40,599 nucleotides of DNA, taken from a virus (taxonomy: Duplodnaviria; Heunggongvirae; Uroviricota; Caudoviricetes). The stretch covers positions 1 to 40,599 of IMG/VR virus record IMGVR_UViG_2537562012_000007; one strand, given 5' to 3'. This document shows, piece by piece, positions 16,879 to 17,625 of this stretch. A program made the position numbers and the translations under genes. Under the pieces are notes generated by a model. That model had not been told where the DNA came from and ran no database searches. It saw nothing but the letters and a program-made list of their open reading frames with translations. Positions within the stretch are counted from its first letter, which is position 1. Each line of letters begins with the position of its first letter.

Positions 16879-16903
16879 AAACCCGCATCAAGCGGGTTTT
16901 TTT
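16879..16903 (+). terminator. Rho-independent terminator, possibly bidirectional
   Basis: ACCCGC-ATCAA-GCGGGT followed by TTTTTTT; A-rich on the 5' side. Confidence 0.6.
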
Positions 16904-16985
16904 GTGTCACTTATCTCGGATAGACATGGTGAATGCGCTGGTGGAGGAGATAAGGGTGATTTTTAACCAGGTGATTTTTGAATGC

Positions 16986-17014
16986 TTGCAACATTGATTT
17001 CGTAACGTTATTAT
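16986..17014 (+). promoter_or_regulatory. Strong sigma70-like promoter upstream of the tRNA cluster; candidate late promoter (pR' analogue)
   Basis: TTGCAA (16986-16991), 17 bp spacer, TATTAT (17009-17014); predicted start just before tRNA 1. Confidence 0.5.
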
Positions 17015-17023
17015 CCTGCGCCC

Positions 17024-17099
17024 GGCCCTTTAGCTCAGTGGTGAGAGCGAGCGACTCATAATCGCCAGGTCGCTGGTTCAAATCCAGCAAGGGCCACCA
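17024..17099 (+). tRNA. ileZ: tRNA-Ile2-like (anticodon CAU)
   Basis: Manual cloverleaf: acceptor GGCCCTT/AAGGGCC, D-arm GCTC/GAGC, anticodon loop CTCATAA, T-loop TTCAAAT, CCA end; resembles E. coli tRNA-Ile2 more than elongator tRNA-Met by recollection. Confidence 0.8.
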
Positions 17100-17100
17100 A

Positions 17101-17177
17101 CCGCCACTAGCTCATCAGGAAAGAGCGTCAACCCTTTAAGTTGAGTGTGCGAGGTTCGAGTCCCCGGTGGCGGTCCA
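17101..17177 (+). tRNA. tRNA-like gene, anticodon apparently UUU (Lys-like), atypical
   Basis: Acceptor CCGCCAC/GTGGCGG, anticodon stem TCAAC/GTTGA with loop CCTTTAA (C at position 33), T-loop TTCGAGT, CCA end; D-loop lacks the usual GG. Confidence 0.55.
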
Positions 17178-17179
17178 GT

Positions 17180-17255
17180 GCCGACTTAGCTCAGTAGGTA
17201 GAGCAACTGACTTGTAATCAGTAGGTCACCAGTTCGATTCCGGTAGTCGGCACCA
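17180..17255 (+). tRNA. tRNA-Thr (anticodon UGU)
   Basis: Acceptor GCCGACT/AGTCGGC, D-arm GCTC-AGTAGGTAGAGC, anticodon loop CTTGTAA, T-loop TTCGATT, CCA end. Confidence 0.85.
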
Positions 17256-17258
17256 TAT

Positions 17259-17333
17259 GCGGGCATCGCATAATGGCTATTACCTCAGCCTTCCAAGCTG
17301 ATGATGCGGGTTCGATTCCCGCTGCCCGCTCCA
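17259..17333 (+). tRNA. tRNA-Gly (anticodon UCC)
   Basis: Acceptor GCGGGCA/TGCCCGC, anticodon stem TCAGC/GCTGA with loop CTTCCAA, T-loop TTCGATT, CCA end; resembles E. coli tRNA-Gly by recollection. Confidence 0.8.
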
Positions 17334-17540
17334 GTCAGAGTCTTTCAGTCTGCGATGATGGGAAATCCCGGAGTGACTGAAGGACGTTTAAGTTATGAAT
17401 GATCGCCTTTTTTTGCAAAATTGCTGTGCAGAAATACTAACCTTCGGGCAGGCGATCATTCATAAGCACTCTGCTTTTATTCCGATTAACTGTGGGTGGT
17501 TTGTTGGATAGAGTGCTTTCCTTACTGTATATATTGTTTC

Positions 17541-17565
17541 GCCCGCTTTTGCGGGCTTTTCTTTT
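17541..17565 (+). terminator. Rho-independent terminator upstream of the holin gene (candidate tR' analogue)
   Basis: GCCCGC-TTTT-GCGGGC followed by TTTTCTTTTC. Confidence 0.6.
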
Positions 17566-17625
17566 CAAATCCCTTTCATTTCTCAGTGTAAAACTACGCC
17601 ATCCGTTATTTGCGGAGGTGAGGCT

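Follow-up and report, generated by a model that had tools for sequence, protein, structure and literature searches.

The closest described system to the locus considered here is the pR'-tR'-tRNA arrangement of Shiga toxin (Stx) phages. In the Sakai Stx phages Sp5 and Sp15, the start of the late promoter pR' was mapped "closely associated with Q," the antiterminator gene, with a 3' end at the terminator tR' 258 nucleotides (nt) downstream, and in Sp5 a separate primary start site, distinct from pR', drives the transfer RNA (tRNA) genes (Sy et al.; PMC7547250). A second point of reference is the promoter pR'21 of phage 21, at which Q binds a pair of direct 8-bp subsites and which also carries a −10-like pause element (Yin et al.; bioRxiv 10.1101/651190, PMC9388147); the protein family PF06530 is named the Q21 family (PMC9388147). 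Here we analyzed the interval between Q and the lysis genes in 40,599 nt of a tailed phage genome (Caudoviricetes; IMG/VR record IMGVR_UViG_2537562012_000007, positions 1 to 40,599), hereafter the window.

In its architecture this interval is instructive but ordinary, belonging to a known kind; the one element that may be new is a conserved RNA trailing the tRNA genes. The region is probably organized as two nested transcription units, a Q-dependent late unit beginning at pR' and, embedded in it, an autonomous stable-RNA operon. This reading draws on anatomy, homologies, segments that travel together and covariation, from which we predict where transcription starts in this prophage, its dependence on Q, how the RNA is processed and what the trailer does. 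An initial annotation of the window had placed a late-control region between Q and the lysis genes, with the tRNAs in the untranslated leader of the late operon. Both assignments are borne out, and a scan found its terminators and promoter-like site at the same coordinates. It had further taken the promoter next to the tRNAs for pR' and the terminator before the holin for tR', and it is here that the present analysis departs from it. The features of the interval are as follows.

14874–15230, plus strand: Q antiterminator gene, 118 amino acids (aa), Q21 family PF06530 (Pfam E 7.9e-45).
15238–16812, minus strand: inserted island of three genes (303, 81 and 128 aa) flanked by TTATGA; its three open reading frames (ORFs) occupy 15244–16791, minus strand.
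16815–16855, plus strand: predicted late promoter pR', aligned with TTTACG-16-TATCAT and TAAGAGTGG of Sp5.
16879–16905, plus strand: first intrinsic terminator of the predicted pR' leader (+25 to +51), assigned the tR' role (scan, −12.2 kcal/mol).
16955–16979, plus strand: T-rich GGTGATTTTT, two copies in tandem (repeat search).
16986–17023, plus strand: putative tRNA operon promoter TTGCAA-17-TATTAT with discriminator CCTGCGCCC (scan, conservation with Sp5).
17024–17333, plus strand: four-tRNA array (ARAGORN, Rfam tRNA model, RefSeq annotation).
17340–17385, plus strand: hairpin 1 of the trailer RNA (predicted fold, −22.2 kcal/mol).
17393–17465, plus strand: hairpin 2 of the trailer RNA, the inverted repeat of the initial annotation (predicted fold, −28.3 kcal/mol).
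17464–17518, plus strand: hairpin 3 of the trailer RNA, with the G/U-rich loop GGGUGGUUUGUUGG (predicted fold, −20.3 kcal/mol).
17541–17565, plus strand: intrinsic terminator closing the tRNA-plus-trailer unit (scan, −13.7 kcal/mol).
17611–17676, plus strand: 10-nt perfect inverted repeat joining the holin Shine-Dalgarno region and codons 14–17 (repeat search).
17626–17841, plus strand: S21-type class II holin with the MKSM dual-start motif, the first late gene (PF04971, E 1.4e-35).

The resemblance to the 933W/Sp5 and Sp15 cassette begins with Q itself, which shares its Pfam family with the Sp5/933W-type protein and is 46% identical to it. It extends to TAAGAGTGGT..GCCAC followed by an AACCCGC hairpin and U-run about 24–52 nt after the start, which is also found 3' of Q in Sp5 and Sp15, and to a separate tRNA promoter whose downstream array opens, as in Sp5, with an identical ileZ-type tRNA. 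Sp5 differs in having an extra segment of roughly 200 nt that leads to a second terminator at +258 and gives StxS; the window lacks this segment. The window, on the other hand, has an island between Q and pR', carries the tRNAs Ile-Lys-Thr-Gly rather than Ile-Arg-Arg, has no toxin genes and has a structured trailer RNA after its tRNAs, and the pause-element-like TACATT of Sp5 is not conserved in it. Phage 21 shares with the window the protein family and, on the present reading, the order of Q gene, promoter, promoter-proximal pause, terminator and late genes. The window Q is shorter (118 aa), however, and neither the paired 8-bp subsites nor the −10-like pause of pR'21 was confidently recognized in the window.

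The position of pR' follows from the closest relative of the window Q, that of E. coli W224N (95% identical). Homology between the two stops 7 nt past the Q stop codon. W224N has no island, and its Q stop is followed directly by GTTATGA and AAAAAATCACTAACGCG...TAAGAGTGG...hairpin as one continuous sequence, the stretch after the stop reading GTTATGAAAAAATCACTAACGCGTACGCAAAAACTATTGTATCGTGTTAAGAGTGGTTACTTCGCCACACAACTTAAACCCGCC...GGCGGGTTTTTT. In the window the same W224N-type sequence occurs in two parts, with GTTATGA at 15231 after the Q stop and the remainder from 16806, where it resumes as TTATGAAAAAATCACTAACG... and continues into the terminator at 16879. The continuous junction in one genome and the split sequence in the other therefore point to 15238–16812 as an inserted island and to 16806–16905 as the true Q-proximal segment. 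The island, 1.6 kb in size, went in 7 nt past the Q stop codon, immediately before about position −44 of the predicted pR'. From about −44 onward the promoter core has been left intact and is almost the same as that of the island-free relative; an insertion of foreign DNA as close as 7 nt to Q can leave the core untouched. Among the island proteins, that of 303 aa has a match to the PADLOC candidate defence family PDC-S42 (E 3.3e-53), and those of 81 and 128 aa match only PHROGs families of unknown function. W224N (L006) carries, at 3577–4863 between pR' and the holin, a gene pair for an ADP-ribosyltransferase and an AB5-toxin binding subunit, at the position taken by the stx genes and the tRNA operon in other phages.

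The segment 16806–16905 is also the part of the window that is homologous to the mapped late promoter of the Sakai phages. The Sakai start coordinates were re-anchored by means of the terminator U-runs and the transcript length of 258 nt; counting this far back from the final U of tR' leads to the A of TAAGAGTGG in both Sp5 and Sp15, and that A sits 7 nt past TATCAT of a TTTACG-16-TATCAT promoter. When aligned to Sp5, the window has TAATCT at 16843–16848 as its predicted −10, a predicted start at A16855 within TAAGAGTGG, and a candidate Q-binding region, ACGCGTACGC, at about 16823–16832. We thus infer that pR' lies at about 16815–16855, ~150 bases upstream of the promoter at the tRNAs. The terminator at 16879–16905 (AAACCCGC-ATCAA-GCGGGTTT at 16879–16899 and a T-run) would then be the first in the pR' leader and so would play the role of tR', leaving the terminator at 17541–17565 as a second barrier. 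A same-strand upstream Q, a promoter segment linked to it, homology to a mapped pR' and an intervening terminator are all found together at this segment. The initial annotation had itself named a start site directly downstream of Q as the observation that would speak against its choice of pR'; by homology such a start is what the locus has, with the island sitting here between Q and the promoter.

A promoter and loading site specific for one Q must change with Q, and comparison among Q types provides a way to tell the candidate promoters apart. In related prophages pR' lies directly after the Q stop codon. The segment 16806–16905 is contiguous with Q in the closest relative and is swapped for other sequence in phages with a 229-aa or a 166-aa Q (Q229 and Q166); in HK639, which has the 166-aa Q, a terminator follows 66 nt after Q. 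In the 229-aa-Q phages (606R7, PPompW), Q is unrelated and sequence is shared with the window only from 16879 onward. In these phages a promoter of their own, TTGCAA-17-TATATT, overlaps the Q stop and precedes the same hairpin, and TTGCAA-17-TATTAT is present in addition as a distinct site next to the tRNAs (in L001, a copy distinct from the pR' candidate). This first-terminator hairpin is found after the pR' candidate in phages with Q118, Q144 or Q229. Since other Q types have their own promoters in front of a shared hairpin, the alignments indicate that the Q gene and its promoter are one exchangeable module and that the hairpin opens the next. The boundary is sharp, with Q and promoter in one block and the shared terminator, tRNA operon and trailer in another. 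Where pR' lies determines the set of RNAs made constitutively in a lysogen and the sites at which cargo, for instance toxins, defence islands or tRNAs, can be accommodated and yet stay under Q control.

Several observations weigh against this placement of pR'. The predicted −10, TAATCT, is weak, with three of six consensus matches (A2 and T6 are kept), it has no convincing −35, and the consensus scan did not list the site. The −10-like pause element TACATT of Sp5 (+7 to +12; L009, 1052–1057) reads CGCTTC in the window (16861–16866) and TACTTC in W224N. No direct-repeat Q-binding site was recognized in the pR' segment of the window, where only a short ACG..CGTA core is common with Sp5. Moreover, because the 258-nt RNA accumulates in Sp5 (PMC7547250), the homologous first hairpin of that phage is read through at least in part without Q, and the hairpin at 16879 may likewise leak. 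RefSeq annotates a 36-aa "antiterminator" coding sequence at 16856–16966 (WP_099524307.1); this call is probably spurious, because it overlaps the predicted pR' leader and terminator.

The promoter TTGCAA-17-TATTAT (16986–17014) has nine of 12 consensus matches and ends 9 nt before the first tRNA (17024). The number of such sites is not above chance (three against 4.4 ± 1.9 expected), and its significance comes from conservation and context. Sp5 has a counterpart, TTGCAG-17-TATTAT, with an equal 9-nt gap before its ileZ-type tRNA, although about half of the spacer bases differ, and it is this homologue that is reported as the separate primary tRNA start site (PMC7547250). The promoter and the tRNA array are present in phages with Q118, Q144, Q229 and Q250 genes, and at least five different kinds of Q are found upstream of the array and its trailer. 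A site common to phages with unrelated Q genes does not change with Q type, and therefore TTGCAA-17-TATTAT, on this comparison, is the tRNA operon's own promoter and not pR'. Between its −10 and the tRNA lies the GC-rich discriminator CCTGCGCCC. Stable-RNA promoters under stringent control typically have such discriminators. A promoter immediately before the tRNA genes, a GC-rich discriminator and a terminator at the end (17541–17565) together make up the anatomy of a stable-RNA operon.

The array consists of a tRNA with anticodon CAT (17024–17099; Ile2/Met, annotated as Ile and identical to ileZ of Sp5), Lys(TTT) at 17101–17177, Thr(TGT) at 17180–17255 and Gly(TCC) at 17259–17333. The four tRNAs mostly read A-ending codons that are rare in E. 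coli. Among relatives the Ile2, Thr and Gly slots are stable and the second slot varies (L016, L019, L029, L036, L084, L105 and others), being occupied by Lys(TTT), Arg(TCT), Phe(AAA/GAA) or tRNAs of undetermined anticodon; in L105, ARAGORN calls a UAA-reading suppressor (anticodon TTA) there. The tRNA promoter is immediately preceded by two tandem copies of GGTGATTTTT at a distance of 15 nt from each other (16955–16979), of which PPompW phages have one; the T-rich pair is possibly a UP-element-like T-tract.

Beyond the tRNAs, the initial annotation had noted a perfect inverted repeat of 15 bp around a 43-nt loop. The repeat is there and perfect, but its dimensions needed correction: the arms (17393–17408 and 17450–17465) are 16 nt long, 100% complementary and 41 nt apart. 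It is the only perfect repeat of at least 16 nt with arms within 120 nt in the window, where we estimate about 0.001 to be expected by chance. The 292 nt from tRNA-Gly to the holin fold with a z-score of −4.65 against shuffled sequences, into three hairpins and then the terminator, and the trailer is roughly 230 nt long. In BLAST searches the interval was found in 540 of 5426 complete E. coli genomes (about 10%), never annotated; further relatives were collected by motif scans of viral contigs and of species-representative genomes, and the whole set covers E. coli, Shigella, Enterobacter, Citrobacter, Yokenella and Phytobacter. Almost always, the element comes immediately after a tRNA array whose last gene is Gly(TCC), and the holins downstream of it are of different types.

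The substitutions among these relatives indicate that the fold is under constraint. RNAalifold recovered the hairpins from an alignment of 36 representatives. Across the same representatives, the 44 pairs of the window fold are 93.5% paired, against 35–49% when the partners are slid; 11 pairs change on both sides, and none of 500 shuffles reached the covariation score. In hairpin 1, pairs are swapped between types in the lower stem and the core GTCTGCGATGATGGG...CCCGGAGTGACTGA is conserved. Hairpin 2 has a 16-bp basal stem with changes on both sides at five pairs, an 8-bp inner stem that is 100% paired, and the apical loop AAAUUGCUG. Hairpin 3 has such double changes at four outer-stem pairs and one inner-stem pair. 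Alternations of U-A with U-G and of G-C with G-U are frequent, which fits an RNA read from the plus strand only. The HK639 copy, which also lies between Q and the holin, is 75% identical with compensatory changes. Judged by these compensatory changes and the pairing that they keep, the inverted repeat is a selected RNA stem, the central hairpin of a conserved structured RNA, and therefore not a recombination scar, one of the two origins that the initial annotation had offered for it.

The strength of this evidence and its bearing on a constitutive small RNA are tempered by three points. The covariation is mostly between two main sequence types, so that counts of cells overstate the number of independent events. 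Ascertainment accounts for part of the invariance of the loop motif, by which relatives were collected; the HK639 match and a second motif, GGTTTGTTGG, are independent of that selection. Finally, in HK639 the trailer is present although the tRNA array is not intact and no tRNA promoter is detectable; the element thus does not depend on that promoter, which weakens the proposal that it is made as a constitutive small RNA. In HK639 (L010, 2830–3640) only degenerate tRNA remains ahead of the trailer RNA, including a 3' fragment of tRNA-Gly, and its 950-bp Q-holin interval has four annotated terminators and no ORF.

Non-coding RNAs after a tRNA or promoter in a prophage late region, with a U-rich stretch and an intrinsic terminator, include 3'ETS-leuZ, lambda 6S, LPR2, StxS and the Pas small RNAs (sRNAs), and several Pas sRNAs and StxS share with the trailer its genomic neighbourhood between Q and the holin. 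The trailer differs from all of these in being much longer and more structured (about 230 nt, three long hairpins), and it has no sequence similarity to PasA, PasB, PasC, PasD1, GcvB or Rfam families. An Rfam 15 scan of 14000–19500 at E ≤ 1 matched the tRNAs only, and local alignment scores against the PasA, PasB, PasC and PasD1 loci of E2348/69 were within those of shuffled controls, as was similarity to rrn-leader boxA/boxC. A GcvB mimic was considered and rejected: the best local alignment covers the terminator only, 37 of 500 shuffles equal it, and the shared GGUCUGCGAU and UUUGCAA are not significant. The put RNAs of HK022 and HK639 resemble the trailer in being same-strand structured RNAs inside a lambdoid operon leader, but they are about 70 nt long, with two stem-loops just after early promoters, whereas the trailer lies directly before a conserved terminator, which argues against an antiterminator role. 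HK639 carries a putL-like RNA as well as a copy of the trailer element, and that putL-like RNA, when folded and compared by eye, has no evident resemblance to the trailer. As far as can be told from these sequence and database comparisons, the trailer is a family separate from the known terminator-ended late-leader RNAs.

Three other candidates around the trailer were rejected or gave nulls. Apparent matches of the loop motif in low-GC phages, which looked like a second class, are coding-sequence coincidences. A promoter in the hairpin loop (TTGCAA-16-TACTAA) was discarded on inspection, its −10 varying in relatives (TACTGA, TGCTGA, CACTGA) and missing the final T. Complements of either conserved loop occur elsewhere in the window no more than expected by chance.

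Under the two-unit reading, pR' would fire constitutively from about 16855 and be halted mainly at 16905 without Q. Q, of the Q21 family, would load on polymerase paused near the promoter and carry it through 16905, 17565 and later terminators into S, R and the structural genes; the expectation that both terminators are to be read through by Q-modified polymerase is supported. Independently, the tRNA promoter would make a precursor ending at 17565, to be processed into four tRNAs and the ~230-nt structured trailer, so that in a lysogen the stable-RNA unit would supply tRNAs and a discrete trailer RNA and keep polymerase out of the lysis genes. The trailer would most likely be freed by tRNA 3' processing and stabilized by its hairpins and the terminator. 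Because of the terminator, the U-rich stretch before it and the conserved loops, it could be a stable small RNA, possibly a regulatory one working through the invariant loops; once the tRNAs are excised from the antiterminated transcript, it could give the lysis mRNA a structured and protected 5' end. The 16-bp and 8-bp stems are a candidate site for cleavage by RNase III, whose sites have about two helical turns of double-stranded RNA.

It is conceivable, and we put it forward tentatively, that the trailer represents a previously undescribed family of phage regulatory RNA travelling with the prophage tRNA arrays of Enterobacteriaceae, which could act in trans on host or phage mRNAs through AAAUUGCUG and the G/U-rich GGGUGGUUUGUUGG, or could couple processing of the tRNA operon to the stability or timing of the lysis transcript. 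StxS, lambda 6S, LPR2 and the Pas sRNAs, all lambdoid late-leader RNAs, turned out to regulate host genes, which makes the trailer a reasonable candidate. It is also common, being present in about one in 10 complete E. coli genomes, is unannotated and shows covariation. Alternatively, the hairpins may be purely a cis-acting processing or stability element of the late transcript, either an RNase III site or a protective 5' structure after tRNA excision, with no function in trans. The coaxial 16-bp and 8-bp stems with an internal loop between them could, in the modelled fold, be an RNase III substrate, the element adjoins the 3' end of tRNA-Gly, and HK639 retains it with no detectable promoter nearby. 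The loops GGGUGGUUUGUUGG and AAAUUGCUG, however, are strongly conserved in primary sequence, beyond what stems in general need, and a terminator is kept right after the hairpins as in terminator-ended small RNAs, and we regard an exclusively cis-acting role as unlikely.

The weaknesses of the predicted pR' admit another explanation, namely that the Q/pR' cassette has decayed through island insertion and loss of the pause element, and that the late genes are outside normal Q control. The degenerate pause element, the weak −10 and the island adjoining the promoter all speak for such decay. Against it, the whole arrangement is kept at 99.4–99.9% identity in 37 complete E. coli genomes of diverse origin (strains DS26-1, TW10598 and B2C are examples), the promoter core is intact in comparison with the island-free relative, and the Q ORF (Pfam PF06530) is intact as well, so that decay appears improbable to us.

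In the model of the initial annotation, Q acts at TTGCAA-17-TATTAT as pR', with the tRNAs as its leader and 17541–17565 as tR'. That site is the best sigma-70 match in the interval, and the 17541 terminator is the last barrier before S. These merits are outweighed by the indifference of the promoter to Q type, by its reported Sp5 homologue and by the homology of 16806–16905, the Q-linked segment, to a mapped pR'. The GC-rich discriminator and the 9-nt distance to the tRNA, moreover, fit a stable-RNA promoter, and a start there would lie 2–4 nt before the mature tRNA, placing any pause or Q-loading element inside the tRNA. We consider this model very unlikely, and pR' at about 16815–16855 remains the preferred assignment.

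Lower still stands the suggestion that recombination left the inverted repeat as a scar, or that it is a miniature transposable element or what remains of an integration site at a tRNA locus. The repeat does adjoin tRNA genes, and the TTATGA motif of the island borders recurs at its 5' arm, but the arms co-vary in relatives with pairing kept, G-U wobble is tolerated on one strand only, and each prophage has a single, non-dispersed copy in a fixed place between Q and the lysis genes, so that little credence can be given to such an origin. Least credible of all, to the point of being nearly dismissed, is a small protein encoded by a 38-aa ORF (17395–17511), which has an ATG and is annotated in L001 and called "hypothetical" in some phage records, but has no Pfam match, is shifted in frame by a T-run whose length varies among close relatives, has TTG for ATG, an indel and an early stop in HK639, and bears substitutions that track base pairing and not codons.

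The second terminator (GCCCGC-TTTT-GCGGGC at 17541–17556 and a T-run) lies 60 nt before the holin ATG at 17626, and most relatives also have a terminator here, though of differing sequence. An antiterminator pairing of GGGUGG with the 5' flank of the 17541 terminator was considered and rejected, as the different terminators of HK639-type relatives do not keep it. In many E. coli copies (e.g., L134 and L136) the 3' arm is eroded stepwise from GCGGGC to GCGGGT, GCGGTT and GCGTTT, with a longer T-run, which suggests slippage weakening the barrier before the lysis genes. At the holin start, the Shine-Dalgarno region (TGCGGAGGTG) pairs with codons 14–17 through the inverted repeat 17611–17620/17667–17676; this 10-nt repeat may tune the use of the two starts of the MKSM motif.

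The genes flanking the interval are as follows.

13457–14506: DUF968 protein.
14519–14890: RusA.
17846–18160: DUF1327 protein.
18216–18749: lysozyme.

Two further inverted repeats were found in the window, one at 20680–20734 (25 nt, 88% complementary, with a 5-nt loop) and the other an 18-nt palindrome at 13217–13242.

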